A stretch of DNA of 32,000 bases from the NCBI RefSeq assembly GCF_000009965.1, contig NC_006624.1:1530001-1562000 (forward strand). The letters are read 5' to 3'. Numbering within the stretch: position 1 is the stretch's first letter; every line of letters begins with the position of its first letter. Under the pieces are notes generated by a model. That model was not told the DNA's origin and searched no databases. It saw only the letters and a program-made list of their open reading frames with translations. The position numbers were made by a program, and so were the translations under genes. Source of the DNA: Thermococcus kodakarensis KOD1. GTDB taxonomy: Archaea > Methanobacteriota_B > Thermococci > Thermococcales > Thermococcaceae. Below are positions 669-21,819 of this stretch, piece after piece.

Positions 669-5975
<5,307 letters not shown>

Positions 5976-5983
5976 ACTCTCTC

Positions 5984-6034
5984 CTTTTCTCCAATTTCGG
6001 CATTTTTACAAATTCCTGTCAAAGTATCATTTTT
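5984..6034 (+). terminator. Cluster of oligo-T tracts after nrdJ
   Basis: Within 60 nt of the TGA at 5973-5975 there are ccTTTTct (5984-5989), caTTTTTac (6003-6007) and tcaTTTTTaag (6030-6034). Confidence 0.5.
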
Positions 6035-6117
6035 AAGGGGGAAGTTTTAACTTCTGCCACTCATTGGGAAAGTTTAAGTTTGAGAAGACGAACCGGACTT
6101 ATTAAGGGGTGATGCTC

Positions 6118-6582
6118 ATGGACAAGGTTTACCTCACCTGGTGGCAGGTTGACAGGGCCATATTCGCCCTGGCGGACGAGCTGAGGAAGAACTTCATGCC
6201 GGATGTGATCGTTGGAGTCGCGAGGGGCGGGCTTATCCCGGCTGTGAGGCTCAGCCACATCCTCGGCGACCTTGAAGTGAAGGTCATAGACGTCAAGTTC
6301 TACAAGGACATAGATGAGAGAATGGAGAAGCCGGTCATAAACATCCCGCTCCACGGCTCGCTTGAAAGAAAGAAGGTCGTTATTGTGGACGACGTAAGCG
6401 ACACCGGAAAGACCCTCGAAGTTGTCATCGAGGAGGTAAAGAAAGCTGGAGCCGAGGAGGTTAAGGTCGCCTGCCTCAGCATGAAGCCCTGGACGAAGGT
6501 CGTCCCGGACTTCTACGTCTTCAGGACGGACAAGTGGATCGTCTTCCCGTGGGAGGAGTTCCCGGTCGTTGTGAGGGAGTGA
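6118..6582 (+). CDS. Purine (hypoxanthine/guanine/xanthine) phosphoribosyltransferase
   Basis: Type I PRT fold. The PRPP-binding loop is KKVVIVDDVSDTGKTL and the flexible-loop region is VGVARGGLIPA. Size is about 154 aa, as in small archaeal Gpt/Hpt enzymes. The SD aggggtga (6105-6112) favours ATG 6118; GTG 6109 and ATG 6112 are in-frame alternatives. A TATA-like gaaagtttaagttt lies at about 6070-6083. Confidence 0.85.
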   Translation: MDKVYLTWWQVDRAIFALADELRKNFMPDVIVGVARGGLIPAVRLSHILGDLEVKVIDVKFYKDIDERMEKPVINIPLHGSLERKKVVIVDDVSDTGKTLEVVIEEVKKAGAEEVKVACLSMKPWTKVVPDFYVFRTDKWIVFPWEEFPVVVRE

Positions 6583-6621
6583 GGTTTTTATTCTTCCGCT
6601 CCCACTCTTCTCGGTGATATC

Positions 6622-7176
6622 ATGAGGGCGTTCATAGCGATAGACGTCAGCGACGAAGTTAGGGACAACCTTCTCAGGGCCCAGGAAAGGATAGGGAACA
6701 AGGCAGCCAAGATAAAGTTCGTCGAGAGGGAGAACTTTCACGTCACGCTCAAGTTCCTGGGCGAGATAGACGAGACGACCGCCGAGGAAGTTAAGAGGGC
6801 ACTGGCGGAGATAGCAAAGAAACACAAGAAACACCGCGTCAGGGTGAAGGGGATAGGCGTCTTCCCGAACCCGAACTACGTGAGGGTCATCTGGGCGGGA
6901 ATAGAGAACGACGAGGGGATAAAGGCGATAGCGGAGGATGTGGAGAAGGCCATGAGGAAGCTCGGCTTCAAGAAGGAGAAGGACTTCGTCGCCCACATCA
7001 CTATTGGCAGGGTGAAGTTCGTCAGGGACAAGCTTGAGCTTGCCATGGCGCTGAAAGACCTCGCCAACGAGGACTTTGGGGAGTTCGAGGTCGAGGCGAT
7101 AGAGCTGAAGAAGAGCACGCTAACGCCAAAGGGCCCGATATACGAGACGGTTGCCAGGTTTGAGCTGGCCGATTGA
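6622..7176 (+). CDS. thpR: RNA 2',3'-cyclic phosphodiesterase (2H-phosphoesterase, LigT/ThpR family)
   Basis: Two H-x-T-x motifs with the canonical spacing and context (FHVTLKFLG and AHITIGRV). Length of 184 aa is typical. The SD ggtga lies 4 nt upstream of ATG 6622. Confidence 0.9.
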
Positions 7177-7425
7177 AGCTGTAAGGGGCCTGTGGACATT
7201 TCTGGAGAACTTCGGTATCCTTATTGACTGATACAAATCTTTTTCTTTCGATTGCATGCCTATGCCCCCCATTATTCAGATTTTTTCTTTTGAGATATCA
7301 TAAAAGTAGACCACATCCAAGAACAATTTTTTTCATTTCAAGTTAACATAAAAAATTTAGAGAAAATGACAAAAATATTTATAAGGACAAGGATACTATA
7401 ATGAATTGAAGATAAGTTATGGAGA

Positions 7426-8835
7426 ATGAACCTAATGCAGTGGAAAATTATAGTGATAGTCATATTAGGAATGATTGTCTTGGGGGCCTCCCTCGAATTG
7501 AGCGCAGTAAATCTTGACTTCAACAATCCTCCAGCTCAGGTAATATCCCTACCTCAAGACAACGAGACCAATACAAGGGTATGCGCAAATTTTGACCCAG
7601 ATACTGCATTACGAGAAATAAATATGACAATTCAAAAGCTCACATTAGATATCACTCAAAAAGAAAACAGATTGAAAGAGATCTCTAAAGAGATAAAGAC
7701 AACACGGGATTCCAAGTTACTGAAGGAAATAGTTGAACTCCACAGGGATATTGAAGTGTCAAAAAGCAAAAGAGCATTCTATCAAAGAAAAGCAGGAAGC
7801 ACACAGATATATAGACAATACCTAAACGGCGAAAACATTGGAGTAACAAGTGCTGAATTAAACAAATATAAGAAGACCATGCCTAACTTCAAAGACGTAA
7901 GGAACCCTGAGGACGCTATAATAAAGCTTTCAATTATGGGTGAAATGACCTTTGATAAAATAGTATTAATTGACAACAAAATAAACAGCATACTTGAAAA
8001 CATCTCTTCAGGAACTGCCATGGGAGATGACGTCATCAGCAAAGTCTTTTCATTAATGAACAATCAATCAATATTATGGAATCAGCTAAGAGCGTATGCT
8101 GCATTAAGAGATAACTTACGAGTTAGATCTTTTCTCTCAAAAAATAGCAATAGCTTAGCCATCAGTGCTAATAGCGATCACAATTGTCAGTTAAAAAGTA
8201 ACGGAAAAATAAACTGTAGAGAAATTCAAAAAGGCTACGACGAAGACTTTGACTGTTGTTTGAGCTTTTATAGACTCTTACCTGCGCTTAAAAGCTATCA
8301 GACTTACACCTTCATCAACCTCAGACCCGTAGCTGTGTGGGTTGGGATGTACAGTTCAGAATTCCCTAATAAGGATTACCACGTTGGAGATTGGTGCACT
8401 TACACTTTTCCCCCAGATAATAAAGAATCAACAATTATTAACATCTATTGGGAGACTGCCCAAGAAATAAGCAGAAACTGGGAGCTTAAAGTAAGTTCTG
8501 TTCAGATAAAGTTTTTTTACTCTGCTTTGGTATACCGGCAGGAAACACAGCGATATGAAGAGACAAACTTGATATTCCAATACGATTGTTATTTCAGCAA
8601 GGGAAGAGTCAGATGTCTACCTTCCTCGTCTTACGGAAAATATTTATTTACAAATCCTAGGACTCCTCCATACAAATACACCACTAAAATAGTTACTAAT
8701 CCATATTGGTTAGTATGCAAGTACGGAGGAAACTGCAATGGATACGGCTGTCAATATTCAAAATGGGCAAACGCACACTGTGGAGGATGCTTTGCACCAG
8801 ATAAATCCGCCAGTCAGTACTTTGCAAAATCCTGA
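7426..8835 (+). CDS. Orphan signal-anchored, coiled-coil plus Cys-rich extracellular protein (no recognisable family)
   Basis: 469-aa ORF in a markedly AT-rich stretch. The N-terminal hydrophobic segment is WKIIVIVILGMIVLGASL. A heptad-like K/E/L region (LTLDITQKENRLKEISKEIKTTRDSKLLKEIVELHRDIEV) follows. The C-terminal half is rich in aromatic residues and Cys (14 Cys counted by eye, ending AHCGGCF). Several N-x-S/T sequons are present. A TATA-like atatttataagg lies at about 7374-7386. An alternative start is ATG 7435. Confidence 0.7.
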   Translation: MNLMQWKIIVIVILGMIVLGASLELSAVNLDFNNPPAQVISLPQDNETNTRVCANFDPDTALREINMTIQKLTLDITQKENRLKEISKEIKTTRDSKLLKEIVELHRDIEVSKSKRAFYQRKAGSTQIYRQYLNGENIGVTSAELNKYKKTMPNFKDVRNPEDAIIKLSIMGEMTFDKIVLIDNKINSILENISSGTAMGDDVISKVFSLMNNQSILWNQLRAYAALRDNLRVRSFLSKNSNSLAISANSDHNCQLKSNGKINCREIQKGYDEDFDCCLSFYRLLPALKSYQTYTFINLRPVAVWVGMYSSEFPNKDYHVGDWCTYTFPPDNKESTIINIYWETAQEISRNWELKVSSVQIKFFYSALVYRQETQRYEETNLIFQYDCYFSKGRVRCLPSSSYGKYLFTNPRTPPYKYTTKIVTNPYWLVCKYGGNCNGYGCQYSKWANAHCGGCFAPDKSASQYFAKS

Positions 8836-8850
8836 GGGGGTACTATAAAA

Positions 8851-10068
8851 ATGGATCGGCGTATTCTTTTTCCCCTCATTTCCATGTTTTTGGCTTTTCT
8901 TCTGTGTTCTGACATTATATCTGCCCAAAACTGGATTTTCAAGGGAGTTGCAGTCTCGGACGAAGGTATATATGCTATGACCGAAAACAATACCCTCGTT
9001 AAGCTTACTGAAAGCCTGGAACCTCTATGGGTGGTTGAGATTCAAAAGAATGCCCATATCAAACGCCTAATTCCAGCCGACAACGGCGTTCTCCTTGTCG
9101 GCGATGTTTTAGCCAAGCTCGACGGTAACGGAACCCTGCTCTGGGCAAAGAACGTGAGCGTCCGCGACGCAAGAGTTTTGCCCGATGGAGGTATTGTCTT
9201 CACAGACGGGAAGGTCGTTGGAGTGATCGACAAAAATGGAAAACCACTCTGGACAATCAAGTTCGCAACAAGAATAGCTGAAGTCCCTCCCGGTGTGAGA
9301 ATAAACGCCCTTGCGCCGCTGGACGGCTACATCCTTGTGGCAGGAACCTACATTTTGCCCGACGATCCAAAGTCCCACCTTTTTATAGGGGCACTCTCCC
9401 GGGATGGAACCCTTATCTGGACCAAAGTTCTCAACACGGGATACTATGACTATCCAGATGTCGCCATCTCCCTTGGAAACAATGGGCTCGTTGCAGGGGT
9501 TTACGGCGGCGGGAGCGACGCTCCGTGGATAGCTGACTACTTTGCCTTAAGGGTGTCTCCCGACGGAAAAATTGAGTGGTTCAACTCCTACGCCTGCCCA
9601 AGAGAAGAGGACTGGGACAGGTTTTGGAGCATGAAAGTCCTCGGAGCGGCCTGTAACGATGACACCTGCGCTCTCGGAACAACGACCGGGACGTTTGTTA
9701 TCAACGCCGAGGGAAAACTTCTAACGGGGCTTAACTTTTCCGGAAAAGCCCTGAGAGTGGAGAACAATTCAATTCTTCTCCTCTCGAACGGGACTCTCCT
9801 AACGGTGCCGCTGAAGGGCGCTGAGTGCCGCGCGTACTCATCCAGTGTCCAGTTCAAGGAGATCACTCCAGACGTGAAGGTCGTCCCGGCGGAGTTGAAA
9901 GTGGGGGAAGCTCATCTGCAGGTGACAAAAATAAAGGAAGCCACACGGCCAGATCGCGGAATTCAGAATACTGGAGATGGAGGCCAGGCTAAAGGAGCAT
10001 ACTTTGGAGTTATCTTAGCTGTGGTCTTAATCGTCGGGATGGCTCTGGTAGCTAAGCTCAGAAAGTAA
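8851..10068 (+). CDS. Signal peptide-bearing PQQ-like beta-propeller repeat protein with C-terminal membrane anchor
   Basis: 405-aa ORF starting 15 nt after the upstream stop; the SD gaggggg overlaps that stop. The N-terminal signal is ILFPLISMFLAFLLCSDIISAQN. Motifs of the type G-(T/K)-(L/P)-(L/I)-W recur (NGTLLWAKNV, NGKPLWTIKF, DGTLIWTKVL, DGKIEWFNSY), as in BamB/PQQ-type propellers. The C-terminal TM plus basic tail is YFGVILAVVLIVGMALVAKLRK. Confidence 0.75.
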   Translation: MDRRILFPLISMFLAFLLCSDIISAQNWIFKGVAVSDEGIYAMTENNTLVKLTESLEPLWVVEIQKNAHIKRLIPADNGVLLVGDVLAKLDGNGTLLWAKNVSVRDARVLPDGGIVFTDGKVVGVIDKNGKPLWTIKFATRIAEVPPGVRINALAPLDGYILVAGTYILPDDPKSHLFIGALSRDGTLIWTKVLNTGYYDYPDVAISLGNNGLVAGVYGGGSDAPWIADYFALRVSPDGKIEWFNSYACPREEDWDRFWSMKVLGAACNDDTCALGTTTGTFVINAEGKLLTGLNFSGKALRVENNSILLLSNGTLLTVPLKGAECRAYSSSVQFKEITPDVKVVPAELKVGEAHLQVTKIKEATRPDRGIQNTGDGGQAKGAYFGVILAVVLIVGMALVAKLRK

Positions 10069-19180: not shown

Positions 19181-19999
19181 CTATCCTTTTTTAGCAGCAG
19201 GATTCGCGTAGGGCGCTACAACGTTCTTCGCTCCAGCTACTACCAGTATTCTGGCCAGTCCAAGGTCATCTATTTTTCCGCATTCAACGTATATGTACTC
19301 GCCGTTTTTGGTGTAAAGCTTCGAAAACACCACCTTTATGGGGCCGTTTTGCCATTTCCCCAAATCTTCAACGACGGTAAAGTTAAGCAGTCTTATATTT
19401 TCGTTAATTTTCTCAATGATGTCCTCAATGGAACACGAACAACCGGCCTCAATTAAGCGGGGTTCAGTCTCTCCACCAAAAAGGGGTTCTGGCCAGAAGG
19501 CCCATCGTCCCTTGACGAGGGGAATGAAATAGTAGGCAATCTTAACCTCTCCACTGGATGAACTGGTACTGCCCATCTCTACCTTCTCAAGTTTGGAGTT
19601 CTCACCTGAACAGCTTCCGCGTTCATACTGGAAATAATGCCTCAAACGGGCAGTATCTCCGGGCAGGATCATCTTCACTTCCCCTCCCCATACGGAGCAT
19701 TGTGGTGTGATACCCAGTTTTCTGGTCCAGCTGCTTTTCTCACCGTTGAGAAACGGTGGGATTATCTCACTGTCCTCGGTTTCATACACGTATCCCTCGG
19801 AGAAAAAAACGAATCCCCCTCCAGAAATCCGTACTGCCGTCGTGGGCCAATTGGAAGAGTAAGGGATTGAGGAGAGGCAATCGGTGGAGAAGTTGCTTAC
19901 CGAGAGCTTACAATCGGGATTCCTTTCTGGAAGAATATGCACAAAAAAGAGCAAAGAGAAAAGAAAAACCGCAGCACCGAAAACAAACCCCCTCTTCAA
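19181..19999 (-). CDS. Hypothetical membrane-anchored/secreted protein (272 aa), TTG start, second gene of the peptidase operon
   Basis: The N-terminal hydrophobic segment is FVFGAAVFLFSLLFFVHIL. The rest is Cys-containing and Ser-rich, with no recognisable family. The only start preserving the signal segment is TTG 19999-19997. It sits 5 nt after a perfect SD GGAGGGTGAT that contains the upstream gene's TGA stop. Confidence 0.65.
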   Translation of the reverse strand: MKRGFVFGAAVFLFSLLFFVHILPERNPDCKLSVSNFSTDCLSSIPYSSNWPTTAVRISGGGFVFFSEGYVYETEDSEIIPPFLNGEKSSWTRKLGITPQCSVWGGEVKMILPGDTARLRHYFQYERGSCSGENSKLEKVEMGSTSSSSGEVKIAYYFIPLVKGRWAFWPEPLFGGETEPRLIEAGCSCSIEDIIEKINENIRLLNFTVVEDLGKWQNGPIKVVFSKLYTKNGEYIYVECGKIDDLGLARILVVAGAKNVVAPYANPAAKKG

Positions 20000-20005
20000 T
20001 TTAAA

Positions 20006-21265
20006 TCACCCTCCAGAAGTTACTGCCACGTAGGGGCATATTCCATTCCAGCACATCTTTATGGGTTTTACAGTTGTTATCATTGCGTCCACCCAGTTGC
20101 CGACCTTTATCCATCCCGCAGGTAGATCCTTCCATGTTGTGTGTACGTATATTGCTGGGACGCTTGAATCGTACCCAACAAAGGTCATTGAGTGTCCAAC
20201 AATACTGCCATTTCTAAGTCTCCAGTGAACATTCAAAAGACCCGGATGGTTCTTATCAACTTCTCCTTTAATCGCTAAGAACAGTTGATAGTCCGAAGAG
20301 TATTCACGATTCGTGGCATCGTAGCTGTAGGTTGGATGAACACTAAGATGTCCGTCGTTATAGAGTTTCATGACCTCCCAGTAAAAGTCCTCAATTCCCT
20401 TCGTTATGCCGTTTGCCTCTGTTCTACCACTACTGTCTGTTCCCATTGTAAAGTGAAGAATATCAATTATTGCTTCCCTCATATAGGCGCTTCTAAATTG
20501 GGAGTCATAATATGCAACCACCATTGATGCCGCTATTGGGGAACAGCCATCCCAGTCACCCCACGGATCTGGCGCAGGACCCACGTTGTTAGGGTATCCA
20601 ATGTTGGCGTTTCCAGTGTCAGTGGATGTCCAAGTTGGCACCCCTTCAATGATCTTTCTTGGGGAACTTTTGAGGGCATCCTTTTCCAACTTGACCCAGA
20701 GCACCTCGTTTTTCTTGGATTCTATTGAGAATCTGAATGATGCACTCGGATCGATCCTGTACTCCCTACCGGCCAAATCAACGACCGTGCCATCCTCGGT
20801 CTGAATTCCAAACATTGCCGCCCCAAGAACAACGTAGCGATAGTGCTTAATTCCTATTGTTTCCGCAATTTTGTCCAGTTGCTGGCTGACAAGCTTCCTG
20901 GCCTCGAACACCTGCATCCATCCGGGAGGCATTGTTTTTAACGCAGGTATGAACATGACGCCAACAACTTTTCCATCCTTGAGGAGGGGAACCTCATAGT
21001 AGGCGGGTCTCCCATCGGGGAAGTAAAACAGAACCAGCTTCTTCCCGATTTCTGCCCCTTTGAAGTCCATAAAGGGAAAGCTGTTAAGCTCGTTTTTTGC
21101 TAGATACAACGCCACGTTTCTGGAAACCTGCGGTAGAACTTTAGTAGAACTTTTGGCCACTTCAAGGGCAGGGTCACCGAAAACGTAGCTTTCCGTGTTA
21201 AGTAATGTCATCCCCAAAATCAAAAACATCAGCAGTATTCCCAGGCTCCTGTTCTTCAACTTCAT
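20006..21265 (-). CDS. Secreted papain-fold cysteine peptidase-like protein with long N-terminal prodomain
   Basis: The signal peptide is LGILLMFLILGMTLLNT. The C-terminal ~190 aa contain a nucleophile-type motif DWDGCSPIAASMVVAYY and a His motif GSIVGHSMTFVGYD. Their spacing and context resemble C10/C39/C47-type Cys-His peptidases (compare the G-C-x-A-T-A ... G-H-A-x-V-x-D-G-Y pattern). The N-terminal ~200 aa have PepSY-like beta-rich segments (RPAYYEVPLLKDGKVVGVMFI). GC content is lower than in the flanking genes. Confidence 0.6.
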   Translation of the reverse strand: MKLKNRSLGILLMFLILGMTLLNTESYVFGDPALEVAKSSTKVLPQVSRNVALYLAKNELNSFPFMDFKGAEIGKKLVLFYFPDGRPAYYEVPLLKDGKVVGVMFIPALKTMPPGWMQVFEARKLVSQQLDKIAETIGIKHYRYVVLGAAMFGIQTEDGTVVDLAGREYRIDPSASFRFSIESKKNEVLWVKLEKDALKSSPRKIIEGVPTWTSTDTGNANIGYPNNVGPAPDPWGDWDGCSPIAASMVVAYYDSQFRSAYMREAIIDILHFTMGTDSSGRTEANGITKGIEDFYWEVMKLYNDGHLSVHPTYSYDATNREYSSDYQLFLAIKGEVDKNHPGLLNVHWRLRNGSIVGHSMTFVGYDSSVPAIYVHTTWKDLPAGWIKVGNWVDAMITTVKPIKMCWNGICPYVAVTSGG

Positions 21266-21404
21266 AGAGCATCATCTAACCGAGTGGTCACTAATAATGA
21301 TGTATGATGCTATATAAATTTTTCTATTTTTGCAGTTATTAGTTGAACCAACTAACGTTTTTTGTTATAACCAACTTGTAATAATTAAAATTCAAGCCGA
21401 TCAA

Positions 21405-21447: not shown

Positions 21448-21819
21448 TCATTTTTCCAAAATTTTCACCTTCAGTCCGTACTCCTTAAAGCGCTCGAAGC
21501 CCTTATCGCAGGTGAAAAGGACTGAATTGTGGGCTATTGCAGTTGCGGCGATGAGTAAGTCTTTAAATGGCGGCCGCTGACCTTTCTTCGTCAGATCTCT
21601 GAAGATTGCACCCGCGATCTTTGCGGCCTCTTCGTTGAATTCGACTTTCGGTATCATTTCAAGCATTAACTCTTCCCTCTCCTTCAAGCTTCCACAGTAG
21701 AGTTCAAAGAGGACTATAGCGGGGAGCGCGTAAGTTTCACCTGGGGAAAGACCCTCTATGACTTTTCTGTTTCCCCCGAAGAGCTCTATAACGACGCTGG
21801 TGTCCAGGAGTCCATCCAT
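21448..21819 (-). CDS. vapC: PIN-domain ribonuclease toxin VapC
   Basis: 123 aa. The acidic residues are in PIN positions: [10 protein letters not shown] (first Asp), FELYCG (Glu), LLIAATAI and FTCDKGF (distal Asp). It lies directly downstream of, and overlapping, a small antitoxin gene. Confidence 0.88.

Follow-up and report, generated by a model that had tools for sequence, protein, structure and literature searches.

A predicted papain-fold cysteine peptidase and its membrane-anchored neighbour as a probable two-gene cassette in Thermococcus kodakarensis KOD1

Background

Exported proteases of the papain fold are well studied as virulence factors of bacteria. In the staphopain-staphostatin operons (peptidase family C47) and in the Bfp/Bfi pairs of Bacteroides, an exported protease of clan CA is co-transcribed with a dedicated gene located downstream, and the staphostatins are soluble cytoplasmic lipocalin-like barrels of about 110 amino acids (aa). 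The present analysis concerns two adjacent genes, TK1750 and TK1749, of Thermococcus kodakarensis KOD1, an archaeon. They lie in a window of 32,000 nucleotides (nt) (NC_006624.1, positions 1,530,001-1,562,000), whose numbering is used below. TK1750 is predicted to be an exported papain-fold cysteine peptidase made with a pro-domain, and TK1749 a membrane-anchored protein that is probably its dedicated partner.

The gene order is like that of the staphopain operons, and staphopains were among the top Foldseek matches of TK1750. TK1749 differs from a staphostatin in having a membrane anchor and an external two-domain body, and it gave no Foldseek match to staphostatins. The C10 peptidases streptopain (SpeB) and interpain A have a succession of signal peptide, I69-type pro-domain and papain-fold catalytic domain that is predicted for TK1750 too from sequence and model, the I69-like nature of its pro-domain being putative. 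Interpain A was among its best structural and profile matches, and in both cases the gene directly downstream encodes a partner, but TK1750 itself is matched by neither PF01640 nor PF13734. The streptopain inhibitor Spi (I69) is a small cytoplasmic homologue of the pro-domain, whereas TK1749 is a membrane-anchored protein of 272 aa unrelated to the pro-domain. The most significant profile similarity (E 3e-6) was to the papain family C1, with the His, the Asn-equivalent, the Trp and the preceding strand in register; TK1750 differs in having no I29-type pro-peptide, and the N-terminal half of its catalytic domain is not alignable by sequence.

With the Pfam family PF13529, TK1750 shares the Cys...His order, a nucleophile motif of a small residue followed by Cys, and the histidine strand G-x-H-x-V-x-x-x-G-Y. 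It differs by an extra N-terminal I69-like domain of about 160 aa, a borderline score, the missing Gln and a Thr after the His strand. A further likeness, by description, is to arCOG10864 (Makarova et al. 2014, PMC4158269), a 'predicted peptidase of C39 family' that is predicted to be extracellular and occurs in the dark-matter islands, which are variable and little-characterised parts of archaeal genomes; this group, of which TK1750 is a possible member, is noted for pseudomurein-binding domains, which TK1750 lacks.

UniRef labels TK1750 a 'Peptidase C39-like domain-containing protein', and its RefSeq relatives are already called 'C39 family peptidase'. Because of these names and the 2014 mention of island C39-like peptidases, TK1750 is regarded as an uncharacterised addition to a known protease type. 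The conserved membrane partner appears to be undescribed so far. No characterised archaeal exported protease of the papain fold was found in the literature, and no biochemistry is reported for the family. The result is a sound finding at the level of annotation and not a new kind of system.

Results and Discussion

Gene calls

The open reading frame (ORF) list of the window placed TK1750 at 20006..21265 on the minus strand (419 aa, ATG start) and TK1749 at 19181..19999 on the same strand (272 aa, TTG start). A first-pass annotation of this DNA had reported the same two ORFs at 19181-21265. The gene coordinates match the published table, and the adjacent ileS is TK1748. The TK1750 product is 100% identical to the KOD1 protein and has relatives at 34-81% identity; the 272-aa product of TK1749 is RefSeq WP_048053748.1, with homologues that are 59-91% identical over the full length. 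This database identity, together with the conserved homologues, identifies both as genuine genes and not chance ORFs. An older GenBank call for TK1749 (BAD85938.1, UniProt Q5JJ30) starts at an internal GTG (19678) and gives 165 aa. Residues 1-107 of the longer product are conserved among homologues, and since conservation spans the whole length including this segment, the 272-aa form is correct. The UniProt entry remains truncated and is without the membrane anchor.

Catalytic domain of TK1750

The ORF, Pfam, AlphaFold2 and Foldseek results together describe the TK1750 product (20006..21265, minus strand) as a predicted pre-pro cysteine peptidase of the papain fold (clan CA, Peptidase_C39_2). 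Its catalytic papain-like domain covers approximately aa 206-404 (20054..20650, minus strand), as outlined by the Pfam match, the predicted local distance difference test (pLDDT) scores, Foldseek and the C1 profile matches. The motifs DWDGC(241)SPIAASMVVAYY and GH(358)SMTFVGYD, which the first-pass annotation had singled out, are both present. The codon TGT of Cys241, the predicted nucleophile, is located at 20543..20545 and the codon CAC of His358, the predicted general base, at 20192..20194 (both minus strand). Cys241 was invariant in 18 of 18 close relatives, and both residues were invariant in all 62 diverse relatives of an alignment whose members are at 17-71% identity to TK1750.

The Pfam scan matched Peptidase_C39_2 (PF13529) to residues 237-375 over profile positions 12-140 of 143. 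The score of 25.2 bits against a gathering cut-off of 24 (E 2.8e-5) is a narrow pass; 60 of the 62 relatives matched the same family, the best with an E-value of 5.3e-17. Five of these relatives also matched Peptidase_C10 (PF01640; best E 6.7e-5), five Inhibitor_I69 and one Peptidase_C1, and no PF01640 match was obtained in the scan of TK1750 itself.

The profile built from the 62 sequences was compared with the Protein Data Bank (PDB) and gave dionain-1 (E 3e-6), ginger protease II (1.3e-4), bromelain (2.4e-4), actinidin (3.5e-3) and interpain A (0.011). In these alignments GH(358)SxTxVGY...H-T(376)-T-W(378) falls on His159...Asn175-Ser-Trp177 of papain. His358 is thereby aligned with papain His159, and the codons of Thr376-Thr377-Trp378 (20132..20140, minus strand) with Asn175-Ser176-Trp177, so that the third triad position carries a non-canonical Thr. 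A narrower profile of 18 sequences gave the same papain-family alignments at marginal E-values of 0.04-0.7, and a direct phmmer search of the PDB with TK1750 returned noise only.

The AlphaFold2 model of TK1750 had a pLDDT of 79.9 overall and 85-96 in the catalytic domain. Foldseek against the PDB matched this model to interpain A (C10, E 9e-5) and to staphopains A, B and C (C47, 1e-4 to 4e-4), with further matches to Lpg2622, xylellain and AvrPphB. The matches ranged from E 4e-5 to 1e-3, with a Foldseek probability of 0.99-1.0 and a TM-score normalised to the target of about 0.5. The papain-fold C-terminal domain proposed in the first-pass annotation is hence borne out by the C39_2 match, the C10 and C47 structures and the profile matches in papain register. 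In view of the profile, conservation and Foldseek results, the domain falls in a catalytic fold and its Cys and His are conserved. By fold class and conserved Cys/His, TK1750 is, on sequence and predicted model, a cysteine peptidase of clan CA, and proteolytic activity is predicted.

A word-indexed search recovered only 18 relatives of TK1750, all from Thermococcus. In the exhaustive profile search of 1.84 billion cluster representatives, 634 passed E<=1e-3 and 69 still passed E<=1e-30; the majority are about 400 aa long and aligned along the full length. When clustered at 50% identity, the metagenomic members of the family thus number at least 634 clusters. Those with a name are from Thermococcus, from Methanoregula formicica ('C39 family peptidase') and from a Dehalococcoidales metagenome-assembled genome (MAG; 'C10 family peptidase'). 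Where the organism could be identified the family is largely archaeal (Thermococcus, Halopiger, Methanoregula). The earlier view that secreted cysteine peptidases are foreign to Thermococcales did not hold, the peptidase family being common in Thermococcus genomes and MAGs and an extracellular thiol protease being part of the first description of KOD1 itself (Morikawa et al. 1994).

Export signal and pro-domain

A Sec signal peptide is predicted at approximately aa 1-30 of TK1750 (21176..21265, minus strand) from sequence features and hydropathy; it reads MKLKNR, a hydrophobic SLGILLMFLILGMTLL and NTESYVFG. The protein has a single N-terminal hydrophobic stretch (residues ~6-28, Kyte-Doolittle ~1.7, with a core of 16 residues), and the model shows a helix of low pLDDT at residues 6-21. 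The Sec type was assigned by inspection, and both Sec export and the position of cleavage are to be read as predictions. An N-terminal hydrophobic stretch was found in 38 of the 62 relatives and a Tat-like (twin-arginine translocation) RR motif in 16, the haloarchaeal relatives having Tat motifs. Longer relatives bear PKD, InlB B-repeat or PD40 propeller domains, which are typical of surface proteins. These N-termini and accessory domains argue that the peptidase family is extracytoplasmic.

Residues ~45-205 form a separate alpha/beta domain in the AlphaFold2 model (20651..21133, minus strand), which is a putative pro-domain of the streptopain type (Inhibitor_I69-like) according to the model and the I69 matches in relatives. 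Pfam Inhibitor_I69 (PF13734) matched the equivalent region of relatives at E-values of 7e-4 to 1e-6, below the gathering score where inspected, and the family profile touched the pro-region of the streptopain zymogen (residues 55-89) at E 0.04. At the family level, these similarities support with moderate confidence the assignment of TK1750 ~aa 45-205 as a C10-type (streptopain/I69-like) pro-domain. The long N-terminal pro-region of the first-pass annotation is retained on the strength of the I69 matches in relatives. Its PepSY-like segments were rejected, as the isolated N-domain gave no Pfam match to PepSY at E<=10. The computed mass of TK1750 is 43.4 kDa without the signal peptide and about 24 kDa when the pro-domain is also removed.

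The membrane partner TK1749

The ORF, the RefSeq entry and the homologues describe TK1749 (19181..19999, minus strand; 272 aa) as a predicted single-pass membrane protein with the N-terminus inside and an external domain of about 250 aa. From hydropathy and the model helix, its transmembrane anchor is placed at ~aa 4-22, after Lys2 and Arg3 (19934..19990, minus strand). The N-terminal hydrophobic stretch extends over residues ~4-24 with Kyte-Doolittle values up to 2.5, and the model helix over residues 3-21. The ~250 residues beyond the anchor contain seven cysteines. All partner homologues have one to four N-terminal hydrophobic segments.

No Pfam, NCBIfam, PADLOC or PHROGs match was obtained for TK1749, and no sequence-profile match in the PDB. 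The earlier description of a signal-anchored protein with no recognisable domain agrees with the single N-terminal hydrophobic stretch and the empty Pfam and NCBIfam searches. The family appears from these searches to be restricted to Thermococcales and to carry no known domain. The AlphaFold2 model (predicted template modelling score 0.68) consists of the transmembrane helix and two domains, one beta-rich and one alpha/beta. Foldseek of this model against the PDB gave nothing at E<=1e-3, nor was any staphostatin among the top 50 matches. Recurrent weak matches to Mog1/PsbP/DcrB/EagT6-like folds (E 0.03-0.15) were not relied on. A Spi-like homologue of the pro-domain was also considered for TK1749 and rejected, hhalign against the peptidase family giving a probability of 0.2%.

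The invariant residues of the TK1749 family are mostly Pro, Gly, Cys and aromatics with one Glu and one Arg, and none is catalytic-looking. The partner diverges faster than the peptidase, with 39% against 71% identity at locus L041 and a mean of 32% against 45%. Since the family has no catalytic-looking residues, is always membrane-bound and diverges faster, a non-enzymatic role as tether and/or chaperone-inhibitor is favoured. The co-divergence of peptidase and partner was modest (Spearman 0.32, for pairs that are not independent) and was not used as evidence of interaction.

Gene junction and transcription

The junction of the two genes (19997..20014, minus strand) consists of a Shine-Dalgarno-like GGAGGGTGA (20014..20006) that holds the TK1750 stop TGA, then the six nt TTTAAA as spacer and the start codon TTG (19999..19997). 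This agrees with the first-pass annotation, which had placed the peptidase stop inside the Shine-Dalgarno element of the downstream gene: TGA lies within GGAGGGTGA. Upstream of TK1750 a putative archaeal promoter was read from the sequence (21309..21324, minus strand), with a purine-rich GAAAAA (21324..21319) resembling a transcription factor B recognition element (BRE) and the TATA box TTTATATA (21318..21311). The TATA box is located 46-53 nt, and the whole BRE/TATA element 46-59 nt, upstream of the TK1750 ATG, and the element is unique in the window.

Read counts were taken from the published differential RNA sequencing data (Table S7, PMC4247193), in which TK1749 was counted by its old 498-nt call. 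For TK1750, the libraries treated with terminator exonuclease (TEX) gave 895-1491 reads in exponential phase and 138.5 in stationary phase, and the untreated control gave 473 (PMC4247193). The corresponding values for TK1749 were 14-26, 0.5 and 105 (PMC4247193). Unlike its neighbours, TK1750 had higher counts after TEX treatment than in the untreated control, and its stationary-phase reads were about 8-fold lower (138 vs 1083). In the control library the read density of TK1749 was about 0.56 of that of TK1750. Both genes are covered in these data, the counts point to a strong primary 5' end for TK1750, and the predicted promoter is consistent with the TEX enrichment of TK1750 reads. TK1750 had no entry in one proteome supplement. 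From the junction sequence, the kept gene order and the transcription of both genes, TK1750 and TK1749 are predicted to form a coupled operon.

Conservation of the gene pair

Co-occurrence of the two genes, raised as a question in the first-pass annotation, was found across several Thermococcales neighbourhoods. The gene that directly follows the peptidase is a TK1749 homologue in T. aciditolerans (27% identity, E 3e-26), in Thermococcus sp. LS1, in AM4 and in several MAGs. The cassette occurs in at least three unrelated neighbourhoods (ileS, Nop5/fibrillarin and PsiE/XPG), and in close relatives of KOD1 the whole locus is syntenic beside ileS (three species). When the partner hidden Markov model was run against all ORFs of 50 loci, it matched solely ORFs immediately downstream of the peptidase. 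For a second partner subtype, which occurs at other loci from vent metagenomes, hhalign showed homology to the first (95% probability, E 2.7e-8). Where there is room downstream, nearly every locus carries an ORF on the same strand that starts -4 to +14 nt from the peptidase stop and whose product has an N-terminal transmembrane segment. As the homologue stands directly downstream in several different neighbourhoods, the peptidase-partner pair is a real cassette.

Variants of the cassette were also observed. In T. guaymasensis (CP007140.1, L052 5962-7052) the orthologue of TK1750 is a pseudogene; it carries an internal deletion, its frame changes twice, and its remnants include GHSMTFVGY and VHTTW. 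The 272-aa partner (7061-7879) is intact. In AM4 the partner is in two pieces, a transmembrane fragment of 70 aa and a body of 211 aa (L002 7298-7510 and 7540-8175). In Thermococcus sp. Bubb.Bath (L051 7176-8198) the peptidase is followed by an 831-nt gap with no called gene, in which there is a partner-like frame with a possibly altered C-terminus.

Operon content is variable at loci L013 (ORFs 5152-6168 and 6194-6991), L035 (5349-5822, 5832-6380 and 6464-7219) and L036 (5121-5438 and 5456-5764). One of these three has two tandem partner-like genes, and at other loci the partner is preceded or replaced by one or two small membrane proteins of the polytopic type, with ~100-180 aa and 3-4 transmembrane segments. 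Two or three paralogous cassettes per MAG lie on separate contigs in Thermococcus sp. S144_40 (L009, L012, L014) and 132-544 (L010, L011). Halopiger djelfimassiliensis (L017 3965-5269, plus strand) has a 434-aa homologue with a twin-arginine signal and the canonical IHDTW and with no same-strand downstream partner. A convergent 139-aa ORF at L017 5340-5759 (minus strand) has a Tat/lipobox-like N-terminus (RRQFLATG...FAGC).

Proposed function

The reading that we consider the most probable, and rather better than even, is that TK1750 and TK1749 together make up a cassette of two genes for a thiol protease, cell-surface or extracellular, with TK1749 as its dedicated partner. TK1750 would be made as a pre-pro-enzyme and exported by the Sec signal (~aa 1-30). 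The most likely task of the streptopain-type (I69-like) N-domain (~aa 45-205) is to hold the enzyme in a latent state and/or to help its folding. Latency of the zymogen and autocatalytic activation are suggested by analogy with C10 peptidases. In the papain-fold domain Cys241 would act as nucleophile and His358 as general base, with Thr376 and Trp378 at the positions of papain Asn175 and Trp177.

TK1749 would be translated from the same mRNA through a ribosome-binding site that overlaps the TK1750 stop. Held by its single N-terminal helix, it would expose the ~250-aa domain outward, in the same compartment as the exported peptidase. It is most likely a non-enzymatic partner that serves as a surface tether and/or as a chaperone/inhibitor timing the activation of the pro-enzyme. 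Removal of the pro-domain and a physical or functional link between TK1750 and TK1749 are inferred, and the same applies to each of the tether, chaperone and inhibitor roles.

Several observations weigh against this proposal, the first of them at the active site. TK1750 has Thr at the third triad position, where the 62 relatives have Asp (34), Asn (18), Thr (7) or Ser (3); Thr is shared with the close clade, and Thr or Ser occurs in just 10 of 62 against 52 of 62 for Asp or Asn. The glutamine of a VPxxxQ motif, assigned by reading the alignment by eye and present in 22 of 62 relatives, is missing in TK1750, which reads VPTWTS. C10 peptidases work with a Cys-His dyad and no third catalytic residue (PMC10318531). 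As judged from the sequence, these departures reduce the confidence in a high activity of TK1750, and activity is still possible. No activity data for any family member were found in the literature.

Other points concern the pro-domain and the partner. The isolated TK1750 N-domain gave no Pfam match, I69 included, even at E<=10. The TK1749 model is of moderate quality (pLDDT 68), and in Foldseek, hhalign and PDB profile searches TK1749 resembled neither staphostatins nor Spi nor the pro-domain of the peptidase itself. TEX-library reads of TK1749 were about 60-fold below those of TK1750, as expected for 5'-enriched libraries; attenuation between the two genes would fit this figure as well. Beyond the Thermococcales, the gene after the peptidase frequently encodes some other membrane protein or is absent, as in Halopiger.

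The pair poses the question of what use a conserved membrane-anchored partner is to an exported zymogen in a cell without an outer membrane. TK1750 further raises the question of whether catalysis by a Cys-His-Thr site is possible at ~100 C. Since T. kodakarensis lends itself to genetic manipulation, the questions on both genes are directly testable. Should the answers be ordinary, two 'hypothetical' genes would still have gained an annotation that is corrected and has better support.

Alternative explanations

The alternative that survives best, possible and clearly behind the two-gene cassette, is that TK1750 is a freely secreted nutritional protease and the gene of a thiol protease described from KOD1 in 1994, TK1749 being a mere maturation helper or unrelated. 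It overlaps with the cassette proposal on the peptidase and differs on the site of action and the importance of the partner. Morikawa et al. in 1994 reportedly purified an extracellular thiol protease from the KOD1 culture supernatant, said to be the first enzyme from the strain. The enzyme is said to have a mass of 44-45 kDa and an optimum near 110 C, to be inhibited by E-64 and p-chloromercuribenzoate (pCMB) and to be stimulated by cysteine. E-64 is a clan-CA-selective inhibitor, and the reported sensitivity therefore points to clan CA, the clan of the fold predicted for TK1750.

The 43.4 kDa predicted for TK1750 after signal removal is close to the reported 44-45 kDa of that E-64-sensitive enzyme, and TK1750 is well transcribed in peptide-rich medium. 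The enzyme free of its pro-domain would have ~24 kDa and not 44-45 kDa; because the catalytic domain alone is this small, the mass match needs the N-domain to be attached. The pseudogene in T. guaymasensis and the patchy distribution across the genus argue against core nutrition, and the strict conservation of the membrane partner favours a surface-linked role. The identity of TK1750 with the gene of the 1994 44-45 kDa enzyme is accordingly proposed only tentatively. About as tentative is the fuller proposal that the 1994 enzyme, described as extremely thermostable, is TK1750 active with its N-domain attached and that TK1749 founds a new class of cognate regulators (tether or inhibitor) for archaeal clan-CA proteases, which would be membrane-anchored and extracytoplasmic and would correspond to Spi and staphostatin but act outside the cell. 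If TK1750 is the 1994 protease, an orphan hyperthermostable enzyme of biotechnological interest gains its gene.

An improbable alternative is that the papain fold serves specific processing, transpeptidation or amide formation on envelope components (surface-layer or other surface proteins, lipid- or glycan-linked peptides), with TK1749 as a membrane substrate or substrate-presenting adaptor. Foldseek also matched TK1750 to papain folds that are not proteases, namely the amide synthase CtaG, the phytochelatin-synthase-like Alr0975 and a 'CD lyase', but the best sequence-profile matches are true endopeptidases of C1 and C10. The non-canonical third residue, the lack of the Gln motif and the always adjacent membrane-anchored partner would fit such a role, as would the functional heterogeneity of Pfam C39_2 members (PMC10318531). 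Against it, the zymogen-like I69 domain is typical of proteases, and no glycosyl- or lipid-related genes were conserved in the neighbourhoods examined.

A conflict module, in which an exported toxic protease acts on competitors and a membrane-anchored immunity protein shields the surface of the producer, is less probable again. The cassette has a GC content below that of its flanks, adjoins a VapBC pair, takes differing genomic positions between species and is present as two or three paralogous copies in some MAGs. The partner also diverges faster than the peptidase, and an enrichment of predicted C39-type peptidases is described for the 'dark matter islands' of archaea (PMC4158269). PADLOC and PHROGs were nevertheless empty for TK1750, TK1749 and the nearby TK1753, so the defence role floated in the first-pass annotation found no backing there, and neither did a phage origin. 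No delivery, toxin-cassette or polymorphic C-terminal architecture was seen, and the locus is stably syntenic beside ileS in three species. The decayed peptidase with an intact 'immunity' gene in T. guaymasensis is compatible with a conflict module and not diagnostic of it.

A C39-type leader peptidase maturing double-glycine bacteriocin-like or signalling peptides, as the Pfam name Peptidase_C39-like and the RefSeq name 'C39 family peptidase' of relatives might suggest, is very improbable, since true C39 (PF03412) is the cytoplasmic N-terminal domain of ATP-binding cassette (ABC) exporters and TK1750 has its own export signal and pro-domain, PF03412 matched neither TK1750 nor the 62 relatives, and no ABC transporter, small-peptide gene or GG-leader ORF was present in any neighbourhood examined.

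Neighbouring genes and composition

The guanine-cytosine (GC) content is 46.7% for TK1750 and 47.5% for TK1749, compared with 55.8% for ileS and 52.0% for the window, and at third codon positions it is 51% vs 80% in ileS. The first-pass annotation was right in placing both genes below ileS, and its estimate in the low-to-mid 40s is replaced by values in the mid-to-upper 40s. The lower-GC stretch extends from ~19.2 to 22.9 kb and also contains the VapBC pair and a DUF835 membrane protein.

VapC (PIN, E 2.5e-14; 21448-21819, minus strand) overlaps VapB (PF02697, E 2.7e-24; 21786-22028, minus strand) by 34 nt. The pair is located directly upstream of the TK1750 promoter and is present too at the syntenic T. 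guaymasensis locus; a PIN gene occurs in Bubb.Bath. TK1753 (22141-22899, plus strand) encodes the DUF835 protein (E 5e-35), which has a membrane region at its N-terminus and for which NCBIfam gave a weak match of the FlaH/KaiC-like kind (E 0.018). TK1753 is syntenic with the cassette in three species and missing beside cassettes located elsewhere.

The lowest GC content of the window (37-39%) was observed for two ORFs on the plus strand, 7426-8835 and 8851-10068. The first encodes 469 aa, with a hydrophobic segment at the N-terminus and many Cys at the C-terminus, and the second 405 aa with a signal sequence and a C-terminal transmembrane anchor. This gene pair (7426-10068) may be another variable surface-protein island.

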